A stretch of DNA of 64,000 nt from Thermocrinis sp. (GTDB taxonomy: Bacteria > Aquificota > Aquificia > Aquificales > Aquificaceae): assembly GCA_028276475.1 (NCBI GenBank), contig JAPYWH010000002.1, positions 9,652 to 73,651 of the forward strand, read 5' to 3'. The notes under the pieces are model-generated. The model saw nothing but the letters and a program-made list of their open reading frames with translations, ran no database searches and was not told the DNA's origin. Of the stretch, positions 1,130 to 54,160 are shown one piece after another. Every line of letters begins with the position of its first letter. The stretch's first letter is position 1. The position numbers and the translations under genes are program-made.

Positions 1130-1848
1130 AGAAAAACCTTCTCCAAGGTTAAGCCCTTTGCCTGGGCGGTGTAGGGGCACTTTTTTCCCTTTAAAAACTC
1201 CTTTATGTCCTCCAAGTAAAGCTTGCCCATTCCCAAGTATATAAGGGCACCAGCCATACGCCTTACCATATATCTTAAAAATCTCTTTGCCCTCACCCTT
1301 ATCTCCACTATGCCTTCGTTTTCCACCACCTCGCACTCCTCAATCTCCACGAAAGGGTCTTCTTCTCCCTCCAGCTTGGCAAAGCCCGAAAAGTCATGCC
1401 CACCCAAAAATAGCCCGGAAGCCTTTTTCATCTCTTCAAGTTCTAAAGTATAAGGTATCCTCCAAAGGAAGGGCTCCCAAAAGGGGTTCCTTGCGTGGGA
1501 AGGATAAACCCTGTATATGTAGAGCTTGCCCTTTACCGAATACCTTGCGTTAAAGTTTTCTTCCGCCAGCCATACCTCAGAAACTCCCACATCCTCGGGC
1601 AGGAGGGCGTTTAGTGCTTTTAAGAGATTATTCAGAGGAAAAAACTTTGAAGCTTTGAAGTTTGCTATGTAGTCCTTGGCATGGACGCCTGCGTCAGTCC
1701 TGCAACAGCCCGTCGGTCTTATGCCCTCTCCAAATAACTCGTCAAGCGCCTTCTCCAGAACTCCCTGCACCGTCCTTAAGCCCGGTTGCACCTGCCAACC
1801 GTGAAAGTTTGTGCCCACAAAGGAAAGCCGAAGGCAGTAATTATACAT
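1126..1848 (-). CDS. truA: tRNA pseudouridine(38-40) synthase
   Basis: 'GTNFHGWQVQP', 'RTDAGVHA', 'FNARYS', 'RFLRYMVRRMAG' motifs. Confidence 0.95.
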   Translation of the reverse strand: MYNYCLRLSFVGTNFHGWQVQPGLRTVQGVLEKALDELFGEGIRPTGCCRTDAGVHAKDYIANFKASKFFPLNNLLKALNALLPEDVGVSEVWLAEENFNARYSVKGKLYIYRVYPSHARNPFWEPFLWRIPYTLELEEMKKASGLFLGGHDFSGFAKLEGEEDPFVEIEECEVVENEGIVEIRVRAKRFLRYMVRRMAGALIYLGMGKLYLEDIKEFLKGKKCPYTAQAKGLTLEKVFL

Positions 1849-3382
1849 TCCCCCTTCCTCTGAGCCTGACGGGGTCTTTCTTGCTTCTTATCTTTTCCAA
1901 ACTAACATCCTCCTCCACCCTTGGGTCTGGCGTTAGCTTTTTTAGGCTCTCCTCAAAGGCCCTCTGTGGGTCATAAAAGCTCTGTCTTTTAACCTCCTCT
2001 GGGATCAGGTGATAGTCTTCTCTAATTATGGCTTCCGCCAACTCCATGGCGTAAGGAGAAAGGTTTAGCTTTTTTAAGAGTTCATCGCTACCGAGCCCTA
2101 TGTATAGCCCATAGAGGAATACCTTTTCGTGGTAGCTGAGCTTTTGTCCCTCCCTTGAGCTTTCCAAATGCCTTTGACGGGAGAGATGCTCTCCGATCTT
2201 CTCTCTTAGGACCGCCATTGGTAGGTTTGTTTTCTTTGAGAGGGCGCTCAAAAGTTCCATCTGACGGACTTTGTCCTTTACAAAGGCACAAAAATAAAGG
2301 TAGTCTTCTAAAGCCTGCTTGCTGTTTTCCTTTAAAAGGCTATCAAAGATCTCCTCCGCGCTTTCTATGGATTTTCTTAGCTCACTGGCAAACTTTTTTA
2401 CGTAGGTGTCTGGGTCTTCTCCCTCTGGGAGCAAAAGAACTTTTACCTTTATTCCTTCCCTTAAAAGGTAGGGTGCGGTTTGTCTTACTGCCCTCCTGCC
2501 CGCCTGATCTCCATCAAACAGTAGCACCACCTCCTGCACATAGGCGGATAAAAGCTTTGCGTGTTCTTGTCCAAAGGAGGTTCCCATTACCGCCACCGCC
2601 TCCTGAAAGCCCTCCTGATGCATACTCATCACATCAAAGTATCCTTCCACAAGGATCGCCCTCTTCCTCTCCTTTATGTAGCCAAGCCCCTCATAAAAGC
2701 CAAAGAGGATTTCCCTTTTTTTGAAGAACTCCGTCTCGGGAGAGTTTATGTATTTGGGACCCGCGCCCGTCAAAGTCCTACCACCAAAGCCCAAGATGTT
2801 TCCCCTTTGGTCCCTTATGGGAATTATGAGCCTGCCCGCAAAGAGGTCCTTGTAATGTTTTTCGTCTATCCTTAAAAGGTTGCCCGTCTTCTCGTAGGTG
2901 GCTAACAGTTGGTTTTCCCTCAGAAAGCCCAAAAGCTCCTCCGAGGAGGGCGAGTATCCAAGCCTAAACTTTTTTATAGTCCTCTCTGATATACCCCTCT
3001 CTTTGAGGTAATCAACCACCTTTGGATGTTCCCTGAGCTTTCTGTGGTAATATTCCGCCACCAGGTTGATGGCGTTCAAAAGGTTTTCGTCCTTTTTTTT
3101 GCGCTCCAGCTTGACGGGTATTTTGTACTTCTTTGCCAGTTCCAAGAGGGCTTCCGTATAGGTCAGGTTTTCGTAGAGTGCTACAAACTTTACCGCATCG
3201 CCCCCCATACCACAACCAAAGCACTTCCATATACCCTTTGAGGGAGATACATACAAAGAGGGAGTATCGTCCGGGTGAAAGGGACACCTTGCCTTGTAGT
3301 TGTTGCCACTTCTCTCAAGGTCTATGTAAGAGGAGATCACATCCACTATGTCAAGTTTTTTTACCACCTCCCTGAGGTCCAT
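1841..3382 (-). CDS. dnaG: DNA primase
   Basis: Zn finger CPFH..CFGC, 'KYINSPET', Toprim 'VEGYFDV' and 'FDGDQAG'; start may instead be GTG 3391. Confidence 0.97.
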   Translation of the reverse strand: MDLREVVKKLDIVDVISSYIDLERSGNNYKARCPFHPDDTPSLYVSPSKGIWKCFGCGMGGDAVKFVALYENLTYTEALLELAKKYKIPVKLERKKKDENLLNAINLVAEYYHRKLREHPKVVDYLKERGISERTIKKFRLGYSPSSEELLGFLRENQLLATYEKTGNLLRIDEKHYKDLFAGRLIIPIRDQRGNILGFGGRTLTGAGPKYINSPETEFFKKREILFGFYEGLGYIKERKRAILVEGYFDVMSMHQEGFQEAVAVMGTSFGQEHAKLLSAYVQEVVLLFDGDQAGRRAVRQTAPYLLREGIKVKVLLLPEGEDPDTYVKKFASELRKSIESAEEIFDSLLKENSKQALEDYLYFCAFVKDKVRQMELLSALSKKTNLPMAVLREKIGEHLSRQRHLESSREGQKLSYHEKVFLYGLYIGLGSDELLKKLNLSPYAMELAEAIIREDYHLIPEEVKRQSFYDPQRAFEESLKKLTPDPRVEEDVSLEKIRSKKDPVRLRGRGNV

Positions 3383-3383
3383 A

Positions 3384-4466
3384 TCAAACACCTTGCAGTG
3401 AGGCGCGCAGTTTCTCCTCCATCTCGTGCTCCTCTAAGGCGGAGATGATCTCATCAAGCTTTCCTTCTAAGATGTCCTGAAGGCGATGGGAGGTGTAGTT
3501 GATGCGATGGTCTGTAACCCTGTTTTGTGGAAAGTTGTAGGTTCTGATCTTTTCGCTCCTTTCCCCAGTTCCCACCTGCTCCCTCCTCTCCTGTGCGATC
3601 TTTTCTTCCTTTTGCCTCTCGTAGTGATCCTTTAGCCTTGCGTAGAGTATTTTCATAGCCTTTAGCTTATTCTGAAATTGGGAACGCTCGTCTTGGCAGG
3701 ATACCACTATCCCCGTGGGTAAGTGGGTGATCCGGACCGCAGTCTCAGTGGTATTCACATACTGCCCACCCGCACCACTGGCACGAAAGGTTTCTATCTT
3801 TAGGTCCTCCGGGTTTATTTGCACCTCCGTCTCGTCTGCCTCAGGAAGGACAGCTACTGTGGCGGTGGAGGTGTGTATTCTTCCTCCCGCTTCCGTTTTT
3901 GGCACCCTCTGGACCCTATGAACCCCACTTTCATACTTTAACTTCGCGTAGGCGTCCTTACCCTCAATTAGGGCTATAACCTCCTTGTATCCTCCGAGCC
4001 CTGTCTTTTGGGCGCTAAGTATGGAAAACTTCCAGCCTTTTTCCTCTGCGTACTTTTGATACATGTTCAGCAAGTCGGCAGCAAAGAGGGCAGCCTCTTC
4101 GCCACCAACCCCCGCCCTGATTTCCAGTATAACATTTTTAGAATCCTTTTCATCCTTTGGAACCAACAGCCGTTTTATCTCCTTTTCTAACTCCTCCTTT
4201 TCTTTTTCTAACCTTTTGAGTTCCTCCTTTGCTAAATCTTCAAACTCCTTGTTTTCCAAAAGTTCCTTGGCAGATTCCATTTCCCTCTTTATCTTTGCAT
4301 ATTTGTTGTATGCCTCGTAGGCAGGCTCCAACTCCTTGAATTCTTTGCTTAGCTTGGAGTAAAGGTCTATGTCCTTTAGGGTCTCTGGGTCTGAGAGCTT
4401 AGCCTGAAGTTGAATGTATTTTTGGTGTAATACCCTTAGTCTTTCCTCTAAGTCCTTATGAAGCAT
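3384..4466 (-). CDS. prfA: Peptide chain release factor 1
   Basis: GGQ motif, 'ESGVHRVQRVP', 'IRTYNFPQNRVTDHRI'. Confidence 0.97.
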   Translation of the reverse strand: MLHKDLEERLRVLHQKYIQLQAKLSDPETLKDIDLYSKLSKEFKELEPAYEAYNKYAKIKREMESAKELLENKEFEDLAKEELKRLEKEKEELEKEIKRLLVPKDEKDSKNVILEIRAGVGGEEAALFAADLLNMYQKYAEEKGWKFSILSAQKTGLGGYKEVIALIEGKDAYAKLKYESGVHRVQRVPKTEAGGRIHTSTATVAVLPEADETEVQINPEDLKIETFRASGAGGQYVNTTETAVRITHLPTGIVVSCQDERSQFQNKLKAMKILYARLKDHYERQKEEKIAQERREQVGTGERSEKIRTYNFPQNRVTDHRINYTSHRLQDILEGKLDEIISALEEHEMEEKLRASLQGV

Positions 4467-4653
4467 CGACGGACTTTCCTGCAGTCTCCAGCAGGAAGGG
4501 TTTGATCCTCAACTTGCCCGTATAGAAGGGGTGGCAAGCGTTGCACGCTTCAAGATAGACAGTGCCACCTTTTGTGGAAAGCAGTGTAAAGGTGTTCCCA
4601 CACCCACACACAAAGGTGGTAGGCTTCAATTCAGGATGAATACCCTTCTTCAT
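4456..4653 (-). CDS. rpmE: 50S ribosomal protein L31 (Zn-binding type)
   Basis: 'MKKGIHP', CGCGN and CNACHPFYTGK. Confidence 0.95.
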   Translation of the reverse strand: MKKGIHPELKPTTFVCGCGNTFTLLSTKGGTVYLEACNACHPFYTGKLRIKPFLLETAGKSVDAS

Positions 4654-4722
4654 TTTTGCACCTCCAAAAGAGTGAGAGATATATATTATATCCCTTATAA
4701 TCAGAAAACAAGGAGGTTTGGT

Positions 4723-5166
4723 ATGCTGACGCCAGAACAGTTAAGGGTTTTAAAGGAAAGGCTTGAAGAAGAAAGGGCAAAGCTCTTGGAAAGGTTCAGA
4801 AAAATTGAAGACACGCAGAGTAAGATCGGAGAGCAGATAAGGGAGCCGGGGGACCAAGAGGACCTGAGCCAAATGACTTACACCCAAGAGGTCCTTGATA
4901 ATCTTTCCGCAAGGGAGATGTTCATAATAAGGGAAATAGACTATGCAATGCAAAAGCTTCGGGCGGGCACCTACGGTGTATGTGAATACTGCGGAGAGTA
5001 CATAGAGTATGAGAGACTGTTAGCTATACCTTGGACTAGATACCATGCGGTCTGTGCAGAAAAAGCAGAAGAGGAGGGCATAGTGCCTACCTATACACCC
5101 ATTATCTTTGAAGGCACACTGCCGGAAGAGATGGAAATTCAGAGGGAAGATATTACGGAGGCATGA
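4723..5166 (+). CDS. DksA/TraR family Zn-finger protein
   Basis: Start MLTPEQL after AAGGAGG; coiled coil with D-x-x-D, 'GTYGVCEYCGEYI..ERLLAIPWTRYHAVC'. Confidence 0.85.
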   Translation: MLTPEQLRVLKERLEEERAKLLERFRKIEDTQSKIGEQIREPGDQEDLSQMTYTQEVLDNLSAREMFIIREIDYAMQKLRAGTYGVCEYCGEYIEYERLLAIPWTRYHAVCAEKAEEEGIVPTYTPIIFEGTLPEEMEIQREDITEA

Positions 5167-6323
5167 GGTTTGATTTTTACCTGCCCGTTGAAGTCCTCTT
5201 TGGAAGTGGAAGGCTAAACGCCTTAGGAGAGGTTGCCAAAAGATACGGCTACAGGGCAATAATCATAACTGGTAAGCATAGCACCAAAGAGAGCGGAGCT
5301 TTAGAGAGGGCAATGCATTCCCTCAAAAGATGGGGTGCGGAGGAGGTGATCCTTTACGACCGGGTGGAGCCAAACCCTACCGATCAAATGGTAAATGAAG
5401 CGAGCGCCATAGTGGTGGAAAATAAGATAGACTACATAGTGGGCTTGGGGGGAGGAAGTGCCTTGGACACCGCCAAAGCGGTTTCCATTGTTTCCTCCAA
5501 CGAGGGCTACGCATGGGATTATGTGAATTATCCAGAGGGTCCCAGGCTCATTCCCTACCTCAACAGACCGGTAATATGCATACCAACCACTGCGGGCACG
5601 GGTAGCGAGGTAAACAGATACTCGGTTATATCAAACCCAAAGAGAAAGGAAAAGCTGGTCATCTCTCACTCCCTGAACTATCCAAAGGTTGCCATCATAG
5701 ACCCAACCCTGACCCTTTCCATGGGTCCAAGGCTAACCGCCATCACGGGAGTGGATGCCTTTGTCCATGCCCTTGAATCCCTTACCAACAAGGTGGAAAA
5801 CACCTTTGCGGACGATTTAGCGATAAAAGCCCTGAGGATTATCAAAGAGTGGCTACCGGTGGCGGTTAATGAGCCGGAGAACCTAACCGCAAGGGAGTGG
5901 ATGGGCTATGCGTCCATGCTGGCGGGCATAGCCATAGACAAAAAGAGGGTAGCCCTAATACACGGCATGGAACACCCTGTTTCCGCCCACTATCCGAATA
6001 TAGCCCACGCGGAGGGACTTGCGGCGCTTGCCCCGGCAATAACCGCCTTCAACTACAGAGGGAACCCACACAAGTATGCCCTCTTTGCGGAGATTATGGG
6101 CTATGAACCAAAGCCCGAAAAGGCTGTGGATGCGGTTGTTGAGCTCTTGGAAAAGGTGGGATTGAGGGTTTCTCTCAAAGAGCTTGGTGTGGAACGGGAG
6201 AAGTTAGAGAGACTAACAGAAGATACCTATATGCTCTCCAGAGGGATCTTTCCCATAAACCCGGTGGAGCCAAGTATGGAAGACATACACGAGCTCTATG
6301 TGAAGGCTTATGAGGGCTTTTGA
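5163..6323 (+). CDS. Iron-containing alcohol dehydrogenase
   Basis: 'GLGGGSALDTAK', 'IPTTAGTGSEV', 'DAFVHALES', 'HGMEH'. Confidence 0.92.
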   Translation: MRFDFYLPVEVLFGSGRLNALGEVAKRYGYRAIIITGKHSTKESGALERAMHSLKRWGAEEVILYDRVEPNPTDQMVNEASAIVVENKIDYIVGLGGGSALDTAKAVSIVSSNEGYAWDYVNYPEGPRLIPYLNRPVICIPTTAGTGSEVNRYSVISNPKRKEKLVISHSLNYPKVAIIDPTLTLSMGPRLTAITGVDAFVHALESLTNKVENTFADDLAIKALRIIKEWLPVAVNEPENLTAREWMGYASMLAGIAIDKKRVALIHGMEHPVSAHYPNIAHAEGLAALAPAITAFNYRGNPHKYALFAEIMGYEPKPEKAVDAVVELLEKVGLRVSLKELGVEREKLERLTEDTYMLSRGIFPINPVEPSMEDIHELYVKAYEGF

Positions 6324-8410
6324 GCCTCCGCCAAGACAAAGCTTAGCCTACCCCTCTCCTCATCCACTGATATTAGCTTTACCTTGACCTTGTCTCCTAA
6401 GCGATAGACCTTGCCCGTTCTGTAGCCCACAAGCCGATGGGCTTTTTCGTCGTATATGTATTCATCCTCCTCCAAAGACGCCACATTGACCAAACCCTCC
6501 ACCAAGTAATCTTTAAGCTCCACAAAAAAGCCAAAGGATACCACGCCCGTTATTATGCCCTCAAAGTCCTCCCCTATGTGTGCCCTCATGAGCCTCACCT
6601 TTAACCGGTCTATGGCTTCCCTTTCCACATCCTCCGCCAACTCCTCCTGTAGGGAAAGGTGCTCTCCCACCATTTCCAAGTAGCTAACCGTCTGCTCGTA
6701 GTTTATGCTTTCCCCTCTGAGGGCTTTCTTCAAAAGCCTATGAACCACCAGGTCCGCATACCTTCTTATGGGAGAGGTAAAGTGTGCGTATCCGTCGCTG
6801 GCAAGCCCAAAGTGTCCCAAATTGTGTGGAGAATACCTTGCCTTCATCATACTGCGCAAGGTCAAAAACCTAACCAAGTGCTCTTCATCCCTACCTTCAA
6901 AGTCCTCTATGATTTTTTGGAAAAACTTGGGCTCAAGGGAAAACCTTTTAACTTTGTAGCCAAGTCCCTCTAATATCTCCAGTAGATTTTCCACCTTTTT
7001 TGGGTCTGGCTTTTCATGAACCCTGTAAAGGCAGGGATAGCCCATGCTGGCAAGATGCTTTGCCACCGTTTCGTTGGCGGAGATCATAAAGTGCTCTATA
7101 ATTCGGTGGGCTATGTGGCGCTCATAGGGCACTATGGCGGTAGGTTCCCCATATTCATCCACTATCAACTCTGCCTCTGGCAGGTCAAAGTCTATGCTAC
7201 CCCTCTCCCACCTTCTGTAAGAGAGAATTCGGTATAGGTCCTCCATGAGCCTGAGTGGTTCTACAAGGTCTGGATACTTCTTCTCAAGGGCTGGGTCCCC
7301 TACGATAAGTCGCAGGGCTTCGTCGTATGTTAGCCTTGCCTTGCTCCTTATTACGCTCTCGTAGATGTCATACCATAGCAGGTCTCCCTTTGGGCTAAAG
7401 ACCATCTCACAGGTAAAGGCAAGCTTGTCTTCATTGGGCTTTAGACTGCAAAGGTCTGCGGAGAGCCTTTCCGGTAGCATGTGGATTGCCCTGTCGGGCA
7501 GATAAAAGGTAAAGCCCCTCTCAAAGGCGCTTTTGTCAAGGGCGGAGCCCTCCCTTACAAAGTAAGACACGTCCGCTATATGCACCCAGAGGCGGTAGTT
7601 CCCCTCGGGCGTTTTCTCTATGGCGACCGCATCGTCAAAGTCCCTCGCCTTTGGTGGGTCTATGGTAAAGCATACCTGATCCCTTAGGTCCCTTCTCCTC
7701 TTGAGCTCCTTCTCCCAATCTATGGAAAGGCTTTGGGCTTCTTTTAGAACTTCCGGCTCGTAATCCTGAGGTAGCTTATACTTGTGGATGATTATATCCA
7801 CAATGAGGTTCTTTTCTGCTGGGTCTCCAAGGACCTTTTTAACTTTGCCCAACATTGGGCTCTCTTTGGAAGGGTATCGCACAATTTCCGCCAATATTAC
7901 GGTGCCTTCCTTTAACTCTTTGCAGGCATCCTTTGGCAGAAAGACCCTGTGAAAGCTGTTTTGGTCCAAGGGAACTCCCACACACTGTCCCTTTTCTTTT
8001 TTTATAGAACAGACCAACTCCTTTGTGCCCCTCTTTAGAACCTTTAGCACCCTTATTTCCTTTTTGCCTTTGAATTCCACCACCTTAGCCTTGACCCTGT
8101 CTCCGTGCAAGAGCCTTTCCATCTCAAAGGGTGGTATGTATATATCCTTTTTGCCTTCTCCCACTTCAAGAAAACCAAAGCCGTTGGGATTTGCCAAAAC
8201 TGTGCCTGCCACCACCTCCTCCTGCGCCAACCTATACCTTCCGCCATCCACCATAATTGTTCCTTCCTTTTTTAGCTTTTTCAGAAGCTTTTTCAACGCC
8301 TTTCTACCCTTTTTGTCCAAAGACAAAAGGTGGGCAAGCTCGTTAAAATGCAGAGGCTTTTTGCTAAGGGCTTTTATAATATCCTTCTCCTCAAGGGAAA
8401 TTTCAGCCAT
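6308..8410 (-). CDS. rnr: Ribonuclease R
   Basis: N-terminal HTH/CSD, RNB 'TIDPPKARDFDDA', 'HFTSPIRRYADL', C-terminal S1. Confidence 0.95.
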   Translation of the reverse strand: MAEISLEEKDIIKALSKKPLHFNELAHLLSLDKKGRKALKKLLKKLKKEGTIMVDGGRYRLAQEEVVAGTVLANPNGFGFLEVGEGKKDIYIPPFEMERLLHGDRVKAKVVEFKGKKEIRVLKVLKRGTKELVCSIKKEKGQCVGVPLDQNSFHRVFLPKDACKELKEGTVILAEIVRYPSKESPMLGKVKKVLGDPAEKNLIVDIIIHKYKLPQDYEPEVLKEAQSLSIDWEKELKRRRDLRDQVCFTIDPPKARDFDDAVAIEKTPEGNYRLWVHIADVSYFVREGSALDKSAFERGFTFYLPDRAIHMLPERLSADLCSLKPNEDKLAFTCEMVFSPKGDLLWYDIYESVIRSKARLTYDEALRLIVGDPALEKKYPDLVEPLRLMEDLYRILSYRRWERGSIDFDLPEAELIVDEYGEPTAIVPYERHIAHRIIEHFMISANETVAKHLASMGYPCLYRVHEKPDPKKVENLLEILEGLGYKVKRFSLEPKFFQKIIEDFEGRDEEHLVRFLTLRSMMKARYSPHNLGHFGLASDGYAHFTSPIRRYADLVVHRLLKKALRGESINYEQTVSYLEMVGEHLSLQEELAEDVEREAIDRLKVRLMRAHIGEDFEGIITGVVSFGFFVELKDYLVEGLVNVASLEEDEYIYDEKAHRLVGYRTGKVYRLGDKVKVKLISVDEERGRLSFVLAEAQKPS

Positions 8411-8452
8411 AGCCTCTGCCGAGGTTTAAAATTTTAAACTATTTTTATTACG

Positions 8453-9694
8453 ATGATGGTAAAAGATCAGATTCTCTACGAACTTTATAAAGGAAAAGAT
8501 TATCACATTGAACCCACCTTAGAGAGGATTGAAAAGGCGGTTGAGTATGTGGGTTTAAAAGAGCCCTCCTATGTGTCCCTTTTGGTAGGAGGCACCAATG
8601 GGAAAGGCTCTACCTGTGCCTTTGCGGAGCGTATTCTCAGGGAGCATGGCTACAAAACCGGTTGGTTTGTCTCTCCGCATCTTTACGATGAGAGGGAAAG
8701 ATGGAGGCTGAACGGACAAAAGATAGAGCAAGAGAGGTTAAAGGAGTATGTAAAGGAGCTAAAGGGCGTCTTTGAAAGGTTTAACCTTACCTACTTTGAA
8801 GCTTGCACCCTAATAGCCCTAAAGTTCTTTGAGGATGAAAAGGTGGATTTTGCAGTCTTTGAGGTGGGAATGGGAGGCAGGTGGGACGCCACCAGAACCT
8901 GCAGACCTTCCGCCTGTGCCATAACCAACGTTCAGAGAGACCATGTAAAGTGGCTGGGTAAAAGTCCCGAAGAGAGGGCTTATGAAAAGCTGGGCATATA
9001 TGTGCCCGGCAGACCCATTGTGATCGGCAGTCCTAAGGAACCTCTATATCCCAAAGCCTTGGAGTTATGCGATCTGAAGGACTTGATCGTGGCGGGCATG
9101 GACTTTTTTGCCTACGGCAGAGTGGAGGGCATGCAAACCTACTTGGAGAACTTTAGCTCTGACTTTTTTTCAATAAGCTCCGCCAAGCTGGGGCTTTGGG
9201 GCAAGTGGCAAATAGACAATGCAAGCGTAGCTATTGCTTTGGTAAGCCAAGTTATAAAACTAAAAGAAGACCACACGAGAAGAGCCCTTGAGAGAACAAG
9301 GTGGGAGGGAAGGATGGAAATTTTGAGGGAAAACCCCCTGCTGGTAATAGACGGTGCCCATAACCCGGATGGTGTCAAAAGGGTAGTCCATCAGTTGATA
9401 AAACATGGCATAAAGCTAACTCCCGTATTTACCGGGCTAAAGGACAAGGAGTGGAGAGAGTCTATGACTTTTCTCCGAAAGCTTTCAGAAAAGATCTATT
9501 TGGTGCCCATCAACCACCACAGGGGAGAAGGGCTATCTGAACTGGTGCAACAAGCCCAAAGGCTGAACTTTAGGGAGGTCGTCCCTCTGAGCTCTGCGGG
9601 AGATGTTTTTGGGCTAAAGGAGGATGTGCTAGTGCTTGGCTCTCTATACTTGTTGGGAGAAGTAAAGGAATGTCTGGAAGAAAAGAGGGAGTAG
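8453..9694 (+). CDS. folC: Folylpolyglutamate synthase/dihydrofolate synthase
   Basis: 'GGTNGKGST', 'EVGMGGRWDAT', 'DGAHNPDG'. Confidence 0.95.
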   Translation: MMVKDQILYELYKGKDYHIEPTLERIEKAVEYVGLKEPSYVSLLVGGTNGKGSTCAFAERILREHGYKTGWFVSPHLYDERERWRLNGQKIEQERLKEYVKELKGVFERFNLTYFEACTLIALKFFEDEKVDFAVFEVGMGGRWDATRTCRPSACAITNVQRDHVKWLGKSPEERAYEKLGIYVPGRPIVIGSPKEPLYPKALELCDLKDLIVAGMDFFAYGRVEGMQTYLENFSSDFFSISSAKLGLWGKWQIDNASVAIALVSQVIKLKEDHTRRALERTRWEGRMEILRENPLLVIDGAHNPDGVKRVVHQLIKHGIKLTPVFTGLKDKEWRESMTFLRKLSEKIYLVPINHHRGEGLSELVQQAQRLNFREVVPLSSAGDVFGLKEDVLVLGSLYLLGEVKECLEEKRE

Positions 9695-10236
9695 TTTTTG
9701 TAGGCTCTTTTAGGGAGAACTTTCCAGAGGATCATAGAAGGCATGTGGTCTTTGTGGGAAGGTCCAATGTGGGTAAATCCTCGCTTATAAACATGCTGGT
9801 GGGCAAAAAGGTAGCCCATGTTAGCAAAGAGCCAGGCAGGACGAGGGATATTAACTTCTTCCTGTGGGATGATGGGCTATATCTGGTGGATGTGCCTGGT
9901 TATGGCTATGCAAAGGTTTCCGGTGAAGAAAGGGAAAGGTGGAGGCTTATGATGGAAAAATATTTTACCCAGTGCAAAGAAAAAATCCAATGGGTGTTTT
10001 TGCTCATAGACAGCAAAGTAGGACCTACACCCTTAGATAGGTCTATGATAGAGTTTCTTTCTTCTTTTAACCTATCCTATGTGCTCGTTTTGACAAAAGG
10101 AGATAAAGCAGATCAGAGGGAAAAAGAGAAAACCATAAAGGAACTGAGCCTTCTTTCAAAAGCACCAATTCTTATAACATCAGCCAAGGAGGGGAAAGGT
10201 AAAAGGGAGCTTTTAAAGTTCCTGAAAGTTGAATAA
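9670..10236 (+). CDS. yihA: Ribosome biogenesis GTPase YihA/YsxC (EngB)
   Basis: 'GRSNVGKSSLIN', 'PGRTR', 'DVPGYGYA', 'TKGDK'. Confidence 0.93.
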   Translation: MSGRKEGVVFVGSFRENFPEDHRRHVVFVGRSNVGKSSLINMLVGKKVAHVSKEPGRTRDINFFLWDDGLYLVDVPGYGYAKVSGEERERWRLMMEKYFTQCKEKIQWVFLLIDSKVGPTPLDRSMIEFLSSFNLSYVLVLTKGDKADQREKEKTIKELSLLSKAPILITSAKEGKGKRELLKFLKVE

Positions 10237-36969: not shown

Positions 36970-36995
36970 TTAAAAGCATGTTTATTTTCTAAATG

Positions 36996-37004
36996 TGCTA
37001 TAAT
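36996..37004 (+). promoter_or_regulatory. Extended -10 promoter for the ferredoxin cluster
   Basis: TGCTATAAT upstream of AGGAGG-ATG. Confidence 0.6.
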
Positions 37005-37037
37005 TTTTCCACTTCAAAACTTTTAGGAGGTTAAGGT

Positions 37038-37256
37038 ATGGCTATAAAGACAAAGGTGGACCCAGACACCTGCACCGCCTGTGAGCTATGCTACGACAGA
37101 ATTCCAGAAATTTACAAAAACCGGGGTGATGGCATTGCGCAGGTAGTTTCTCCTGGACCCGATGGATATGCAATCGTCCCCCCTGAGCTTGAGGCTGAGG
37201 TAAAAGAGGTCGCAGACGAATGTCCCAGTGGCTCCATAATTACAGAGGAAGCATAA
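37038..37256 (+). CDS. fdx1: Monocluster [4Fe-4S] ferredoxin 1
   Basis: CxxCxxC...CP; closely resembles Hydrogenobacter Fd1 as recalled. Confidence 0.93.
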   Translation: MAIKTKVDPDTCTACELCYDRIPEIYKNRGDGIAQVVSPGPDGYAIVPPELEAEVKEVADECPSGSIITEEA

Positions 37257-42296: not shown

Positions 42297-42671
42297 ATGC
42301 CGCTGACAAGGTTAAGAGAGCTTCTTAATGAAATGAGTATGTTTATTTCTCAGCACGCCATTTATATATCCAAGTTAGAAAGGGCTGTTAAAAACCGCGA
42401 AGAATTTGCCCACAAAACCTGCCATCAATGCAATTTTGGTGTAGAGTTGGACAGTATGGTGGTGCCTGTAAAGGACAAACTTCCTGAGGAAGTGAGGACT
42501 TTGGTGGACGAAATAGAAAAAATTCATTGCGAGTTTCATGAGGTTAGCATGCAAATAGACCCCAAAAATCCTCAGCCCTCAGATGAGGAAAAGCTTAATA
42601 GAATGAGAGAGCTAACCACTGAATTGTTTCAGAAACTTTTAGCCCTAAAAAGGCTTGCAAAGGAGGAGTAG
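42297..42671 (+). CDS. Stand-alone CZB (chemoreceptor zinc-binding) domain protein, copy 1
   Basis: H..., HxxCxFG, HxxFH ligand pattern; W of the FGxxW motif replaced by L. Confidence 0.8.
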   Translation: MPLTRLRELLNEMSMFISQHAIYISKLERAVKNREEFAHKTCHQCNFGVELDSMVVPVKDKLPEEVRTLVDEIEKIHCEFHEVSMQIDPKNPQPSDEEKLNRMRELTTELFQKLLALKRLAKEE

Positions 42672-42739: not shown

Positions 42740-43129
42740 ATGCCGTCTAGAGTATTAAAGGAGCTTGCTAACAAGGTAGGTATTTTTATTTCTCACCACG
42801 ATACTTATGTATCCAGATTAGAGAGGGCTATAAAAGATGGTGAAGAATTTACCCACAAAACTTGCCATGAATGTAATTTTGGTTTAGAGTGGGACAGTAT
42901 GGTGGTGCCTGTAAAGGGCAAACTTCCTGAGGAAGTGAGGACTTTGGTGGACGAAATAGAAAAAATTCATTGTGAGTTTCATGAGGTTAGCATGCAAATA
43001 GACCCCAAAAATCCTCAGCACTCAGATGAGGAAAAGCTTAATAGAATGAGAGAAATGAGCAACTTATTGCTTCGTAAGCTTTTAGCCTTAAAAAGGCTTT
43101 TATCAAAAAGGCTTGTAAAGGAGGAGTAG
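42740..43129 (+). CDS. Stand-alone CZB domain protein, copy 2
   Basis: 'HHDTY', 'HECNFGLEW', 'IHCEFH'. Confidence 0.82.
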   Translation: MPSRVLKELANKVGIFISHHDTYVSRLERAIKDGEEFTHKTCHECNFGLEWDSMVVPVKGKLPEEVRTLVDEIEKIHCEFHEVSMQIDPKNPQHSDEEKLNRMREMSNLLLRKLLALKRLLSKRLVKEE

Positions 43130-49047: not shown

Positions 49048-49912
49048 GTTCAGCGTATCCTTTGAGTTTTTCCCTCCCAAGTCTCCCGAGGGAGAGAAAG
49101 AGCTCTTTGAAACCATAAAGGAGCTTGAAGCACTCAAGCCCACCTTTGTATCTGTTACCTACGGGGCGGGTGGGAGCACTCGGGACAGAACAAGAAGTAT
49201 AGCTTATAGAATACACACAGAAACAAAGCTTACTGTTATGGCACATTTGACTTGCATAGCCCACTCAAAGGAGGAACTTTTAGAGATCCTTCAAGACTAC
49301 AAAAGTATAGGCATTGAGAACATATTAGCCCTCAGGGGTGATATGCCAAAGGGAGATTTTCAGGCTCCAAAAGGTGCTTGCAAGTATGCGGTGGAATTGG
49401 TAAGGTTTATAAGGGAAAATTTTGACAACTTTTTTTCTGTAGGTGTTGCCAGCTATCCAGAAAAGCATCCCGAGTCTCCCAACATGGAGTGGGAGATAAG
49501 GTTTTTCAAAGAAAAGGTCTTGGCGGGTGCTGACTTTTCCATAACTCAGATGTTCTTTGATAACTCATACTATTACAGGTTTGTGGAAAGGTGCCATAAG
49601 GAAGGTATAAACGTCCCCATAATACCGGGCATTATGCCCATAACCAATTTTTACCAGATCAAAAAGTTTGCCAGCATGTGCGGGGCAACCATACCACAGG
49701 GTCTGGTGGATACCTTGGAGCCCCATGCGGAGGACCCGGAGGAAACCACAAAAAGGGGCGTAGAGTTTGCTATAAGGCAGTGCGAAGACCTAATAGCCAA
49801 TGGAGTCCCCGGACTTCACTTTTACACCCTCAACAAATCAAAGGCAACCCTGCTTATCTACCAAGCCATAAAGCACCTTATACCGCCTAAGGTCCTATCG
49901 AGGCTGTTTTAA
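49019..49912 (+). CDS. metF: 5,10-methylenetetrahydrofolate reductase
   Basis: 'SFEFFPPK', 'SVTYGAGG', 'LRGD', 'ITQMFF', 'HFYTLN'; stop codon lies inside the TIR element. Confidence 0.96.
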
Positions 49913-50148
49913 AAATCCCTTATCGGGACCGTCCCCCCCAGCGGATAAGGGAACTAACCCTTTCCCCACCCTGTCCCACGCTCCCTTGCGGGAGGAGAGG
50001 AGTATCTTCCTCTCAAGAACAGGGAAGAGGAGGGCTACCTTCAGAACCTGCTGGACAATGGTAAGGATTTTAAAATCCTTCCCGTCTTCAGGGTTCCTTC
50101 CATTGGTCCCACAACGGGCACCCAGCAAGTTCTGAAAGCTTTGCATAG
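49900..50148 (-). ncRNA. Candidate structured ncRNA inside element copy 1
   Basis: Extended -10 TGATATAAT (50154-50162), 15-bp helix, three-way junction, terminal hairpin plus U-run; covaries with copy 2. Confidence 0.5.
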
Positions 50149-50206
50149 GAAAAATTATATCACTTCTCAAAAACTTTTCCTCAGTTTGTATTTTTAGAAC
50201 AGTATC
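49900..50206 (-). mobile_element. MITE-like non-autonomous element, copy 1 (307 bp)
   Basis: Terminal inverted repeats GAGGCTGTTTTAAAAAT / GATACTGTTCTAAAAAT (14/17), 11-bp TSD, no transposase. Confidence 0.85.
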
Positions 50207-51173
50207 AAGGTCCTATCTGTCTGAGAAAGGGTGGAATCTCTTCCGTTTTTGTCCACCCGCACTCCTCCAAGATTATATCCACCGTCTCTTCTTGCTTTCC
50301 CGTCTTTTGAGAGGCATACTTCACAAACTCTGCCCTTTTGCCCTTAAAGTTCTCTATATCTTCCTCAGAGACCTCAGGCAGTCTTGCTGTTATCCTCTGC
50401 TTGACGATTTTCCAAGCGGTAGTGTTGCTATAAAGGTCAAACTTTTTGTCTTTTACTGTTATCTTGGCGGTTAGTTCCTTAAGAAAGTCCAGCCTTTTTG
50501 GGTCTATAGTCAGTATAGCCTCCGCCATGAGAGGGTCTGCGGTGTAGAAGATGCCAAAGAGCTTTCCTAACACCCTCCTGTGGGTTAGAATGATCCTATC
50601 AAGGATCAACTGAACATCCTCCTCTACCTTTTCGTATATGAGGTCATAGTAGTTTAGTGTTTCAAGCTCAAGACCTCCAACATGCCTTATGAAGTTTGCC
50701 ACGTTCCCATAGTCCAACTCCTGCTTTTCTTCCTCCACCTTTTCTTTTACCACCTGCGTGCTCCCGTAGTCAAGGACCACATCCGTATGCACGGGTGAGA
50801 TTATGTGATAAGTTTCCGATTCCCAACCTGCTTTGCGCAGAATTTGCTCCGCACCGCTTTCGTCAATGTTTAGCCTTTCCATGAGCAACCTCTTTAGTCC
50901 TTCCCTGTCCCTTCTGTATTTGTCCAATTCCTCCTCGGGAATATCCACATCCACATAAACGAACCTTTCTACGCCGTTTTCCTTTATGAATATATTTTTC
51001 CTGCCTCTTATGTGCCTTTTGATGAACGCCCACTCCTCGTCGGTCATAATAGGTTCTGGATGCCACAGTTTGGACATCTCCTCCTCAAGCTCTAAGTAAG
51101 GTACCGATTCATACCATGTGGCGTTGTTGAGCTTCATCTCCACAGATTCCCTGCTCTCTCCCGTCTTTTTCAT
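50205..51173 (-). CDS. Hypothetical protein with CsbD/YjbJ-like helical repeats; 5' part separated by a frameshift
   Basis: Repeats W..[IV]K..I..R...EE...R......L...GW at about aa 48-117 and 254-308; repeat homology continues upstream of the ATG. Confidence 0.65.
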   Translation of the reverse strand: MKKTGESRESVEMKLNNATWYESVPYLELEEEMSKLWHPEPIMTDEEWAFIKRHIRGRKNIFIKENGVERFVYVDVDIPEEELDKYRRDREGLKRLLMERLNIDESGAEQILRKAGWESETYHIISPVHTDVVLDYGSTQVVKEKVEEEKQELDYGNVANFIRHVGGLELETLNYYDLIYEKVEEDVQLILDRIILTHRRVLGKLFGIFYTADPLMAEAILTIDPKRLDFLKELTAKITVKDKKFDLYSNTTAWKIVKQRITARLPEVSEEDIENFKGKRAEFVKYASQKTGKQEETVDIILEECGWTKTEEIPPFLRQIGP

Positions 51174-51210
51174 TACATAGTCTATGAACTCTTTCCTTTT
51201 GAACTTAAAG

Positions 51211-51459
51211 CTATATTACCTGAAGTAGCCGGGCTAAGTTGAGCTTTTTTATGTTTTCAATGTGGCAAAGTTCCGCCCGGTATTCGGGTGGAAGGTTAAT
51301 GACGCAATACTCGTTCATAACGTCCATTTCCCGCTTTAGCATACTACGAAAGAAGGCGAGCTTTTCCCTCCTGCTTAGGTTTTGTTTTTCTAAAAGTTTT
51401 TCCATCATGGCTGTTCCCTCCTTTGTTAGATAAATATAATCTACTGAGGGAGGTCTCAC
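51211..51459 (-). pseudogene. Probable frameshifted 5' fragment of the 50205-51173 gene
   Basis: C-terminal 'IKKLNLARLLQV' matches repeat segment 'VKQRITARLPEV'. Confidence 0.5.
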
Positions 51460-51545
51460 TATGTCCTAAATCAACATTGCCTTGTCCAATTATTTAGCTA
51501 CTCGCCTCCGCAAAGCCGATAGGATTTCTCTATGATATAGGGAAC

Positions 51546-52211
51546 CTAATTTATTGGATAATGCGGAGAACGTTTGAAAAAACCGCAAAAATCCCTTATA
51601 GGGCATACATCGCACCTTGGTTTTTGAGGTTTGCATATCGTTTGCCCGAAGGCTACAAGTAGTTTATTAAAATCCATCCAATAATCTTGGGGCAGTATTT
51701 CCGTTAGTGCCCTTTCCGTCTCCTCCGGAGTTTTTGTGCTAATTAGCTTCCATCGGTTGCATATGCGATGCACATGGGTATCTACACCTATGGCGGGCTT
51801 TCCGAAGGCTTCCACCAGAACAATGTTTGCCACCTTTCTACCCACACCCTCTAACCTCAGAAGTCCCTCGAGGTCCGAAGGAACCTCTCCGCCGAACTCC
51901 TCCTTTATCTGCCTTGCCAACTCTTTGAGATACCTTGCCTTGTTTTTGTAAAAACCCACTGGGTATAAAAGCCTTTCAAGTTCCCTCAGGTCTATGGCAA
52001 GCAGGTCTTCCCAGTTTTTTACCCTTTCAAAGAGCCTTTGGCAGACCTCCGCGGTGGTTTCATCCTTGGTGCGGGTAGATAAGAGGGTGCAAACCAGAGC
52101 CCTAAAGGGGTCTCCCTTTTTGTGGGCTATGAGCTTTTCTATGGGAGCCTTTAGCTTTGGGTATTCCTCTCTGAGGATCTCTATAACCTTTTTTAGCTCT
52201 TCAATTTTCAT
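51546..52211 (-). CDS. nth: Endonuclease III
   Basis: 'LLSTRTKDETT', 'GVGRKVAN', 'VDTHVHRI', 'CKPQKPRCDVCPIRDFC'. Confidence 0.95.
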   Translation of the reverse strand: MKIEELKKVIEILREEYPKLKAPIEKLIAHKKGDPFRALVCTLLSTRTKDETTAEVCQRLFERVKNWEDLLAIDLRELERLLYPVGFYKNKARYLKELARQIKEEFGGEVPSDLEGLLRLEGVGRKVANIVLVEAFGKPAIGVDTHVHRICNRWKLISTKTPEETERALTEILPQDYWMDFNKLLVAFGQTICKPQKPRCDVCPIRDFCGFFKRSPHYPIN

Positions 52212-52234
52212 ACTCAGGGCATATAATTTTAATC

Positions 52235-52465
52235 ATGGCAGACAGGGAATTAGACATCAGAGGCGAGGTTTGCCCTTTTACCTTTGTCAAGAGCAAGCTG
52301 GTGTTGGAGCAGATGGAGCTGGGTCAAGTGCTTAGGGTGGTCTTGGACTATCCACCCTCCGTGGAGAATGTGCCAAAAAGCATGAGAGAAGAAGGACAGG
52401 AGGTCCTTGCCATAAACAAGCTTGACAACAACACCTGGGAAATCCTTATAAGGAAGGCGAAATGA
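52235..52465 (+). CDS. TusA/SirA-family sulfur carrier
   Basis: 'LDIRGEVCPFTF', 'VLDYPPSVENVP'. Confidence 0.9.
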   Translation: MADRELDIRGEVCPFTFVKSKLVLEQMELGQVLRVVLDYPPSVENVPKSMREEGQEVLAINKLDNNTWEILIRKAK

Positions 52466-52764
52466 GAGTTCTCTTTGTAGTAAGCAGTAATCCCTTCTCA
52501 AAGGACTACACCACCATTTTTAACTTGGTGAAGGAGCTTGTAAAGAGGGGAGAGGTTATCATCTTTTTCACGGGCAACGGTGCATACTACACCATAAGAC
52601 CCGAGACAGAAGAGCTTAACAAATTGGGGGCGAGGCTTTTGTATTGTGCTCACTCTGCCCACCAGAGGGGCATAAAGGAGACCCTTCCCTTCTTTGAAAG
52701 CAGTTCCACCTATAACCTTTCCAGGATCATGCTTGAATGTCAAAAGGTGTTATCTTTTAACTGA
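52462..52764 (+). CDS. DsrE/TusD-family sulfurtransferase
   Basis: 'IFFTGNGAY', 'CAHSAHQRG'. Confidence 0.8.
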   Translation: MRVLFVVSSNPFSKDYTTIFNLVKELVKRGEVIIFFTGNGAYYTIRPETEELNKLGARLLYCAHSAHQRGIKETLPFFESSSTYNLSRIMLECQKVLSFN

Positions 52765-52827
52765 TGGAAAGAAAAGATTTTCTCGGGTTCTCTATATCAG
52801 AGTTGGGTGTGGGCACCTGTATGGTGG

Positions 52828-53077
52828 TAGGGTGTTCTGAAAATACAAACCCATTCCTGACCTACCGACCAAATATATTGTTTCAGCTATTTACAACTGC
52901 TTGGCGAGTTCTGAAGGTAGCCTTCCTCTTCCCTATACTTGGAAAGGTCTTACTGAGGGACCTTTCTCCTCTGAAGCCCACATTGGTGGAAGGGGCGTGG
53001 GTAAGGGAGAGGAAACGGTTAGCCCCTTTATCCGTTGGAGGGGCGTATCCCGACGAGGGATTTTTTAGAACAGCCTC
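52828..53077 (+). mobile_element. MITE-like element, copy 2 (250 bp, diverged)
   Basis: Ends TAGGGTGTTCTGAAAATACAAAC / GAGGCTGTTCTAAAAAA; shares GTTCTGAAGGTAGCC and downstream fold with copy 1; no convincing TSD. Confidence 0.75.
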
Positions 53078-54160
53078 ATGGAAGAAACACAAAAAATACG
53101 TCTTTTGAGTAGGTTGGCAAGCTTTGAAAGAGACGGAGATGCCAACTTGGAGGATTGTATATACATGGCTTCCACTCCAAAGGGCAGAGTTCCCATACTT
53201 AAGGTTATGCAAACTACTATGTGCGATAAAAACTGTCTTTACTGTGTCTTTAGAAGGGGCAGAGATGAAACCCCTCGGATTTACATACCTCCAGACCAGT
53301 TGGCGAGGAGCTTTATGGAACTTTACAGAAGGGGTAAGGTAAAGGGGCTTTTCTTGTCCTCTGGGATCTTTGGGCATCCAGAATTTACCATGGAAAAAAT
53401 GATAGACACGGTAAAGATACTGCGAGAGAAATATCATTTTAATGGATATGTTCATTTAAAGCTAATGCCCGGCGTTTCTTTGCAAACAGTAGAGGAGGCT
53501 GTAAAAGTAGCAGACAGGGTCTCCATAAACATAGAGACCTCCAAGGAGGAGAGGCTCAAAAGGATTGCCAAAGGAAAGAGCATACTGCAGGATATTCTTC
53601 CAAAAATAGAAGCGGTGGATAAGCTCATTAGGGAATACAGGGGAAAAAGCCAGATAACCCAAATGATGGTGGGTGTGGATGGAGAAAGGGATGAGGAGAT
53701 CATCAAAGTGGTGAATTTCCTGCATAGAAAATACAGGCTCAGCAGGATCTACTTTAGCGCCTTCTTCCCGATAAAGGGAACGCCTCTTGAGGACAGGCAA
53801 GCGGAGAACCCTTTACGGGAACACAGGCTCTATCAGGCAGAATTTTTGATCAAAGATTATGGCTTTAGCGTAGAGGATTTTAGCAAAGTGCTTGTGGATG
53901 GGAACCTCCCCTTAAACATTGACCCAAAAGAGGCGTGGGCCCTTGCCAACAGGGAGCTATTCCCCGTGGAGATAAACAGAGCAGATTATCATCTTCTTAT
54001 GCGGGTGCCTGGTATAGGCAAGAAATCCGCGGAGGAAATAATCTCAAGGCGCAAAGTAAAAAGGCTCTCTTCCTTGGAAGACCTTAAGGGTATAAGAAAC
54101 CTCAAGAAAATACTCAAATACATAACGATAAATGGGCGCTACTACGGAAAGGGGCTATAA
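53078..54160 (+). CDS. Putative DNA modification/repair radical SAM protein with C-terminal HhH
   Basis: 'CDKNCLYC', 'GLFLSSG', 'GYVHLKLMPG', 'REHRLYQAEFL', 'RVPGIG'. Confidence 0.88.
   Translation: MEETQKIRLLSRLASFERDGDANLEDCIYMASTPKGRVPILKVMQTTMCDKNCLYCVFRRGRDETPRIYIPPDQLARSFMELYRRGKVKGLFLSSGIFGHPEFTMEKMIDTVKILREKYHFNGYVHLKLMPGVSLQTVEEAVKVADRVSINIETSKEERLKRIAKGKSILQDILPKIEAVDKLIREYRGKSQITQMMVGVDGERDEEIIKVVNFLHRKYRLSRIYFSAFFPIKGTPLEDRQAENPLREHRLYQAEFLIKDYGFSVEDFSKVLVDGNLPLNIDPKEAWALANRELFPVEINRADYHLLMRVPGIGKKSAEEIISRRKVKRLSSLEDLKGIRNLKKILKYITINGRYYGKGL

Follow-up and report, generated by a model that had tools for sequence, protein, structure and literature searches.

A structured RNA over the 3' end of a TnpB-family insertion sequence of Thermocrinis and Hydrogenobacter, retained in two miniature elements

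Insertion sequences of the IS200/IS605 and IS607 families, ISDra2 among them, carry TnpB, a RuvC protein of the TnpB/Cas12f fold, together with an omega-RNA or right-end element RNA (reRNA), a structured RNA exceeding 200 nt that covers the gene's 3' end and stops at the right end of the transposon. In these OMEGA systems (obligate mobile element-guided activity) the RNA is far more abundant than the mRNA. TnpB is especially common in Aquificae, and its zinc finger is missing in some large branches (PMC10691335). Here we analyse 64,000 nt of Thermocrinis sp. (contig JAPYWH010000002.1; this whole stretch is called the window), in which two short elements in opposite orientation, copy 1 (49900-50206, minus strand) and copy 2 (52828-53077, plus strand), share a folded core. 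A preliminary description of the window had taken this core for an orphan RNA akin to an unclassified riboswitch or ribozyme. It is instead the RNA module at the 3' end of a ~1,643-bp insertion sequence of the TnpB family, and the two elements are internal-deletion derivatives of that sequence, that is, miniature inverted-repeat transposable elements (MITEs). By analogy with the described systems, the RNA probably acts as cofactor of a TnpB-like nuclease, as an omega-RNA-like guide-RNA module. The finding is real, and it is a variant of the known TnpB/omega-RNA system with no new class of RNA.

The locus resembles the OMEGA systems in the fold of its protein, in the size and placement of its RNA, in the excess of RNA over mRNA, in a candidate pseudoknot with the last bases of the scaffold and in its multi-copy elements with a solo tnpB-type gene, whose relatives adjoin a serine-recombinase TnpA. 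It is unlike them in having no C4 zinc finger, in a U-tract that precedes the element end and in the absence of an Rfam family. The Thermocrinis protein has a C-terminal extension of ~150 aa, so that the whole RNA lies inside the open reading frame (ORF), unlike a TnpB omega-RNA. The ends differ as well. IS607 elements have neither terminal inverted repeats (TIRs) nor a target duplication (PMC6188088) and hold TnpA within the element, whereas the Thermocrinis element has a single ORF, 19-bp TIRs and duplications of 8-13 bp; against the asymmetric ends, subterminal hairpins, integration on the 3' side of a set 4-5-nt site and missing duplication of the IS200/IS605 elements moved by Y1 transposases, it shows symmetric TIRs and flanking direct repeats. 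TnpB branches have also been described in DDE-type elements with inverted terminal repeats, their solo copies being presumed to be mobilised in trans (PMC10691335, PMC10530073). As in those elements and in eukaryotic Fanzor, a TnpB-type gene here lies in a transposon with symmetric inverted repeats, its 3' end less than 250 bp from the transposon end; unlike them, the loci examined yielded no DDE transposase with such TIRs, and the closest sequence relatives pair with serine recombinases. Non-autonomous derivatives of IS200/IS605 (palindrome-associated transposable elements, or PATEs, and MITE-like forms) are gene-less, keep the ends and the omega-RNA region and provide extra guides in trans. 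The derivatives in the window differ from these in being elements with TIRs and target duplications, in the direct joining of a left-end promoter to the RNA in one type, and in that many independent deletions share a breakpoint at the border of two RNA domains. Elements of the IS110/IS1111 group also encode a structured RNA, the bridge RNA or seekRNA, that is used by a RuvC-like (DEDD) enzyme (PMC11187229). There, however, the RNA lies in the 5' non-coding end, determines a single fixed target and serves another protein family, whereas insertion sites in Thermocrinis vary in sequence and the protein has the TnpB/Cas12f fold.

The two diverged, TIR-bounded copies are present in the window as first described. 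They align over ~240 nt at ~70% column identity, both have TIR-like ends that form inverted repeats (GAGGYTGTTCTAAAAAT... and ...ATTTTTAGAACAGCCTC), and the 15-mer GTTCTGAAGGTAGCC occurs exactly twice in the 64 kb, at 50033-50047 (minus) and 52908-52922 (plus). Both are what is expected of MITEs, being short (307 and 250 bp), gene-less, bounded by 19-bp TIRs, multi-copy and derived from a longer element, and both could be miscalled as small ORFs (91 and 114 aa). In element orientation, copy 1 runs from the left-end TIR through a promoter remnant, RNA domain 1 and RNA domain 2 to the right-end TIR; it is the left end, promoter included, joined to the closing ~264 nt of a related element. Copy 2 derives from the ~1,643-bp element by two internal deletions and consists of ~27 nt of left end, ~45 nt of N-terminal tnpB-like coding sequence and the last ~180 nt, aligning to 3581-3607, 3828-3868 and 5042-5223 of the full-length element in locus L006. 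A promoter, domain 1 and a clear target duplication are all missing from copy 2. With domain 2 only, no promoter and mismatches in helix P3, it is probably a decaying relic. A full-length TnpB-like gene was not found in the window, where tblastn with the family protein P0001 matches the two MITEs only. The features are as follows.

50207..50217, no strand: target-site duplication AAGGTCCTATC on the left-end side of copy 1, with GACA before it in element orientation
49900..50206, minus strand: copy 1, a 307-bp type 1 MITE
50188..50206, minus strand: left-end TIR of copy 1, GATACTGTTCTAAAAATAC, the inverted repeat of 49900-49918
50154..50162, minus strand: extended -10 box TGATATAAT, directly upstream of the first RNA helix of copy 1
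50034..50142, minus strand: RNA domain 1 of copy 1, 124 bits with covariance model R2
49911..50039, minus strand: RNA domain 2 of copy 1, 118 bits with covariance model R1
49900..49918, minus strand: right-end TIR of copy 1, last 6 nt AGCCUC
49889..49899, no strand: target-site duplication AAGGTCCTATC on the right-end side of copy 1
52828..53077, plus strand: copy 2, a 250-bp type 2 deletion derivative
52853..52900, plus strand: tnpB-like relic in copy 2, codons ~60-75, 69% identity over 16 aa by tblastn with P0001
52916..53065, plus strand: RNA domain 2 of copy 2, 147 bits with R1, three non-pairs in P3

At the DNA level the relic in copy 2 matches L006 3828-3868. The family consensus of the left-end TIR is GAGGYTGTTCTAAAAATAC, and the family element-end sequence is GAGGCTGTTCTAAAAAT.

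The helices first proposed for the core can all be found in the sequence. Helix P3 is CCCUGUUC:GGACAGGG in copy 1 and CCCU..AGGG in copy 2, hairpin a is GAGAGGA:UCCUCUC against GGAAAGGUC:GACCUUUCU, and hairpin b is CUCCC:GGGAG against CCUCU:AGGGG; the basal helix UAGCC:GGUUA and the long helix 50136-50122 with 50054-50040 are likewise present. Copy 1 folds at -124.5 kcal/mol, far below shuffled sequence (z = -5.8), and copy 2 more modestly so (z = -2.9), with three mismatches in P3. Two points of the original drawing change. The 3' end, given as one terminal CCCUU..AGGGA hairpin, fits better as a pair of hairpins, GUUCCCUU:GGGGGGAC and GUCCC:GGGAU, with a U-tract after them, and the 15-bp helix that had been considered an addition of copy 1 is really part of a conserved first domain that was deleted from copy 2. 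RNAalifold on 44 copies yields two domains. Domain 1 is in copy 1 a long helix, AGCUUUCAGAAC..CUGG with CCAG..GUUCUGAAGGU, around two hairpins; across the 44 copies ..AGCCUUCAGAG..CCAAGC pairs with GCUUGG..GUUCUGAAGGU, and the conserved 'island' of the core is the 3' strand of this helix. Domain 2 is a three-way junction made of P1 (UAGCC:GGUUA), P2, P3, hairpins a and b, P5, P6 and the U-tract. A further helix proposed for domain 1, 25-29:58-62, was dropped at 73% paired.

Covariance models were built from the Thermocrinis copies, R1 for domain 2 (149 positions) and R2 for domain 1 (109 positions). R1 matches homologues whose proteins are 36-49% identical, in each case at the 3' end of the ORF, with 76 bits in L071, 66 in L072, 60 in L073, 47 in L074 and 25 in L075, and R2 matches at 21-37 bits directly upstream of the R1 matches in L072 and L074-L078. 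Since MAFFT left the register of hairpins a and b and of the upstream hairpin inconsistent from one subfamily to the next, pairs were counted on alignments fitted to the models, and these counts are biased towards the models. In domain 2, 97.2% of cells are paired, compared with 90.4% in shuffles and 48-65% when partners are slid; in domain 1 the values are 93.9%, 83.7% and 31-49%. Changes on both sides of a pair occur at 31 of 45 pairs in domain 2 (12.7 +/- 1.7 in shuffles, reached by 0 of 500; 8-13 slid) and at 26 of 34 in domain 1 (14.6 +/- 1.6, again 0 of 500). Minimum free energy folds of individual distant sequences give the same architecture, and conserved G:U pairs are frequent, so that the fold belongs to the sense strand. 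The earlier proposal that the shared core is selected for strand-specific secondary structure rather than decaying neutrally is supported by these results. The RNA family is missing from Rfam: at the gathering threshold the whole window returned tRNA only, and at E <= 10 the interval 49700-53300 returned four weak matches to eukaryotic long non-coding RNA and small nucleolar RNA families, far below their gathering thresholds.

A scan for the island with one genome per species gave 70 loci. Of these, 17 are chance hits, and 53 belong to assemblies of Thermocrinis and Hydrogenobacter or to hot-spring bins that these genera probably contaminate. Across several kb the window is 93-95% identical to contigs of Thermocrinis metagenome-assembled genomes. 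The copies fall into two subfamilies. Type 1, to which copy 1 belongs, is always ~307 bp, and copy 1 is 88-95% identical over its entire length to ~15 such copies in Thermocrinis and Hydrogenobacter assemblies. Type 2, resembling copy 2, corresponds in most loci to the final ~180 nt of a repeat of ~1,643 bp, such as L006 3581-5223. This long element is multi-copy in Thermocrinis and Hydrogenobacter and has 19-bp TIRs and one ORF of 522 or 523 aa that ends no more than 9 nt from the right end. The RNA module occupies its last ~265 nt, overlaps the final ~90 codons and runs to the right end. Metatranscriptome contigs contain numerous independent internal-deletion forms of the long element, with right breakpoints clustered at the border of domains 1 and 2 (L006 5047-5055, window ~52900-52908). 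Copy 2 and L042 are joined at the same border.

In public databases the 522-aa protein is called 'IS200/IS605 family accessory protein TnpB-related' or 'IS605 OrfB transposase', and its precomputed Pfam family is PF27229, SSO2105_N; we found no literature on SSO2105. A Pfam scan of the 523-aa ORF gives weak matches only, including Cas12f1-like_TNB at E = 0.007 over just 26 residues, and NCBIfam and profile or fold searches were needed to place it. NCBIfam TIGR01766 is passed at 55.4 bits (cutoff 32). Searched against the PDB, a family profile finds Cas12f and TnpB chains at 6e-10 to 6e-8 across RuvC-II and the AYTS motif; the single sequence reaches only E = 0.016. AlphaFold2 with a 40-sequence alignment gave a model with a predicted local distance difference test score (pLDDT) of 88.4 and a predicted template-modelling score of 0.81, compared with a pLDDT of 42 from the single sequence. 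The best Foldseek matches of this model are Cas12f, Cas12k, the TnpB of ISDra2 and ISFba1, and Fanzor2, each with probability 1.0, and the RuvC catalytic positions D225, E288 and D357 are aligned. As modelled, the product is a RuvC protein of the TnpB/Cas12f fold without a zinc finger, and AYTSVIGxLKYAPQ stands where the finger would be. At 50% identity the family falls into 1,715 clusters (E <= 1e-3), and T. ruber encodes a member, P0086. Its distant members P0123 and P0160 have an IS607-type serine-recombinase gene immediately before them, with stop and start overlapping, and only distant relatives (L072, L077) have TnpA. In L077, 17-nt inverted repeats (298-314 and 2321-2337) bracket such an IS607-type relative with serine recombinase and TnpB-like gene, in contrast to the description of IS607 elements as TIR-less. 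PADLOC profile PDLC01039, labelled 'Csx1 (found elsewhere)', matches most of the length of P0001 (aa 10-342) at 2e-12; the profile is probably mislabelled and really represents this TnpB-like family.

Expression was assessed on assembled contigs of hot-spring metatranscriptomes, which are unstranded, carry k-mer depth and may include DNA. On L006 the summed depth of the 3' segment (~4950-5223) was 90,000-324,000 in run X12, 98,000-243,000 in X24 and 3,000-9,900 in X23, against 3,800-31,000, 1,200-10,000 and 17-550 for the ORF body. In three of the four runs the depth of the 3' 265 nt is thus 20-50 times that of the ORF body, and in the fourth, X16, ~3-5 times. An excess of 20-50-fold is far above anything that DNA copy number could yield, and the RNA appears to be expressed at about the size that had been predicted. 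Coverage reaches the last base of the element at 5-nt resolution and 8-12 contigs per run enter different flanks, so that read-through exists, as seen in these unstranded contigs. A hairpin followed by U5-6 sits 11 nt before the element end; a strict terminator scan of copy 1 did not call it.

The perfect extended -10 that had been noted in copy 1 is present. The box TGATATAAT is conserved in type 1 copies, nearly all of which keep TTGAAA-N16-(TG)ATATAAT directly before domain 1, but a consensus scan of copy 1 called no full promoter, and the -35 is degenerate in the window copy; only conservation among the type 1 copies reveals the promoter. At the left end of the full-length element a promoter-like TTGACG-N17-TAAAAT lies ~6 nt before the TTG/ATG start (L006 3601-3650), a spacing that suggests a leaderless mRNA for the TnpB-like gene. 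The type 1 -35 is homologous to this left-end promoter, which makes the MITE a promoter-RNA minigene, and copy 1, in which the left-end promoter is joined straight to the whole RNA, would be a stand-alone guide-RNA gene. The promoter segment of copy 1 (50132-50173) also resembles 36985-37026, upstream of a ferredoxin gene (ATG at 37040), with TGnTATAATTTTTCC in both.

The penultimate hairpin has in most copies a GAGGCU loop that could pair with AGCCUC, the final six bases of the element. Loop and terminus covary across loci, the pairs being GAGGUU/AACCUC in L032 and L041, GGGGUU/AACCUC in L055, UUGGUGG/CCACCAA in L071, CUUGGU/ACCAGG in L072 and CCUGGU/ACCAGG in L074. The 3' strand of this candidate pseudoknot directly follows the stop codon in the distant homologues L071, L072 and L074. 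It recalls a pseudoknot that adjoins the guide in TnpB omega-RNAs. The loop is dimorphic, GAGGCU or AUCCGCU (window 49932-49938 and 53039-53045), and each form is seen in the two subfamilies as well as in Hydrogenobacter.

The insertion of copy 1 is polymorphic and recently mobile. The empty-site joint 49888->50207, with exactly 11 nt shared, was seen in four metatranscriptomes, in keeping with the 11-bp target duplication, and occupied and empty alleles coexist in the wild. The insertion lies where the 3' ends of the convergent metF and ORF322 overlap, and it alters the C-terminus of MetF from ..LSV to ..LSRLF. Among the 22 copies with both ends, 12 are flanked by direct repeats of 8-13 bp, compared with 3 of 462 mismatched flank pairs. 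Of 12 distinct sites, 9 have G-N-C-A directly before the left repeat; where a copy has no duplication, the motif stands 9-10 nt before the left end. The outer bases of the right end are nearly invariant and those of the left end variable. No second kind of TIR-bounded element or cargo was found in the loci examined. Variable duplications of 9-13 bp are typical of some DDE families, for example IS4. A composite transposon formed by the two inverted copies was rejected on account of the empty-site allele, which lacks copy 1 alone. In Thermocrinis Bin P10, L066 carries a 21-nt TIR footprint, GAGGCTGTTCTAAAACAGTAT, after the metF 3' end (~3815-3836, minus strand; window ~49889-49914), and synteny with the window stops after it; this looks like a scar of excision or recombination at the same site as copy 1. 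The full-length copy in L006 has no short target duplication, and a 24-nt direct repeat, GGTGTCCCATTTTTTTGTCAAATT, is found at 3553-3577 and 5251-5275, set 5 and 27 nt outside the element ends.

If the RNA is an omega-RNA-like module, the TnpB-like protein would bind the two-domain scaffold as TnpB binds its omega-RNA or reRNA. A minority of transcripts would cross the right end, and their guide would be the adjacent flank. Unoccupied insertion sites, where G-N-C-A lies immediately 5' of the duplicated target, would be cut by the complex, and the cut would favour retention of the element or homing. For these details, the flank as guide and G-N-C-A as target-adjacent motif (TAM), we see the chances as about even.

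Several observations weigh against an omega-RNA-like guide module. The protein falls short of the NCBIfam guided_TnpB cutoff (45 bits against 100), no CxxC pair for the C4 zinc finger (TNB domain, RuvC-II to RuvC-III) exists in the family alignment, and the third catalytic aspartate, D357, is replaced by His in distant family members. TIRs with target duplications of 8-13 bp are not like the products of Y1 or serine-recombinase TnpB elements, and ~350 kb of Thermocrinis loci yielded no transposase gene and no IS607-type TnpA or serine-recombinase gene. The hairpin with its U5-6 could end most transcripts ahead of any guide. The loop AUCCGCU, found in both window copies and ~10 others, is unable to pair with the terminus, so that the pseudoknot cannot form in copy 1. 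The model bias of the pair counts and the nature of the expression data count on the same side, as does the core-encoded C-terminal peptide, whose conservation and confident modelling mean that part of the sequence conservation is at the protein level.

This last point leads to the alternatives. The preliminary description had set its structured RNA against a coding transposase fragment, and since the core overlaps the C-terminal ~90 codons of a TnpB-family gene it is in part just that, coding in full-length elements, although the RNA fold is conserved everywhere. That the core is kept solely as code for these ~90 residues, with the fold a by-product, would fit a reading frame that is open to the element end in nearly all homologues of ~520 aa, and a C-terminal motif, W.VL.VA.L.P.LG..RD.S.LK..L..G.W, that is kept down to ~30% identity and modelled as helices at pLDDT 77-87. 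We regard it as highly improbable. Third-position diversity in 14 full-length copies is in 2.4-6.2-fold excess over codons 1-420, and the excess disappears over codons 420-480 (1.2 and 0.85). Of the upstream hairpin there are at least four sequence versions, each of which pairs while the peptide is rewritten, and compensatory double changes with 94-97% of cells paired extend to the homologues of 36-49% identity. Gene-less MITEs, in which only a constraint on the RNA can apply, retain the fold, type 1 having lost RD.S.LK and kept both hairpins, and the RNA is 20-50 times as abundant as the ORF body. From the open frame and the motif on one side and the RNA signal on the other, the region serves both protein and RNA in full-length elements. 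The structure might alternatively work in single-stranded DNA (ssDNA) as a hairpin recognised by a transposase; it does lie at the element end, IS200/IS605-type TnpB elements use ssDNA hairpins at their ends, and palindromes at the DNA level are common in MITEs. At ~265 nt and 79 pairs, however, it is far larger than end hairpins, and its many conserved G:U pairs would be weak as G:T in DNA and C:A on the opposite strand. In metatranscriptomes the segment is in massive excess, and in type 1 MITEs it is fused to a promoter. TIRs and target duplications are also absent from ssDNA 'peel-and-paste' elements, and we give this possibility very little weight. A new, independent riboswitch or ribozyme linked to S-adenosylmethionine (SAM), its MITE-like ends incidental, would draw on the SAM-related neighbours of the two copies (the metF 3' end and a radical-SAM gene) and on the lack of an Rfam match. 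The neighbourhood had itself been flagged as a possible coincidence, and this is borne out by ~50 further copies in unrelated contexts, mostly inside the TnpB-like gene. Copy 1 is moreover missing from an otherwise identical allele and lies antisense to and downstream of metF. The genomic distribution effectively refutes this idea, which has next to no chance of being right.

Two alternatives stay closer to the preferred reading. The RNA could be structured and functional without being a guide, as a 3' stabiliser or terminator of the tnpB-like mRNA, as a translational or antisense regulator, or as a scaffold or cofactor of transposition. The hairpin and U-tract near the 3' end, at or before which the bulk of the RNA may stop, the commonness of the loop variant incapable of a pseudoknot and the candidate status of the guide/target pair speak for such a role. 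Against it, position, size and ORF overlap fit the guide RNAs of TnpB and Fanzor, the candidate pseudoknot takes up the very last bases ahead of the flank, covariation is kept over a family with the Cas12f/TnpB fold, contigs read through into flanks and a conserved 4-nt motif lies 5' of the target; this makes it unlikely, though the most serious of the alternatives. It is rather less likely still that the one-gene element is autonomous, the zinc-finger-less TnpB-like protein with its embedded RNA performing or directing insertion, recognising G-N-C-A and making the variable duplication of 8-13 bp. In its favour, no other transposase and no partner with matching TIRs was seen in the loci examined, there are more than 15 full-length copies per genome, and the left end has variable outer bases and the right end fixed ones, with a TAM-like G-N-C-A at insertions. 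If it were true, a TnpB relative would act as an RNA-assisted transposase, beyond a homing nuclease.

The surroundings of the two copies offer some further observations. The right end of copy 2 (53077/53078) adjoins the first ATG of a 360-aa ORF with radical-SAM and helix-hairpin-helix domains, the true start of which looks like a later ATG at ~53166 with GGAGGA before it. Between the copies lie ORF322 (50205-51173, minus) and ORF82 (51211-51459, minus), neither of which matched a family in Pfam, NCBIfam, PHROG or PADLOC. The two ORFs are not a frameshifted TnpB, a possibility rejected on the missing family match, the differing frames and the restriction of tblastn matches of P0001 to the two MITEs. 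ORF322 contains, close to its end, 55 nt that resemble the sequence immediately preceding its start (repeat D9), and a syntenic contig of Thermocrinis P10 has neither ORF322 nor ORF82. Elsewhere in the window, tandem paralogous genes of 124 and 129 aa (42297-42671 and 42740-43129, plus) stem from a 300-bp DNA repeat at 85% identity and lie upstream of a gene for a 4Fe-4S cluster protein.

For annotation, the element adds an RNA family absent from Rfam, whose short copies are easily miscalled as small ORFs. It is also a useful variant of the TnpB systems, a thermophilic relative of ~520 aa without a zinc finger whose ~265-nt RNA lies wholly within the ORF. Natural hot-spring transcriptomes are very rich in this RNA, type 1 MITEs are natural promoter-RNA minigenes, and the coexistence of occupied and empty alleles permits direct testing of the homing or retention model. 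TIRs, variable duplications of 8-13 bp and G-N-C-A beside a TnpB-type gene are atypical among bacterial TnpB elements, and this combination bears on how TnpB partners with different transposition machineries.

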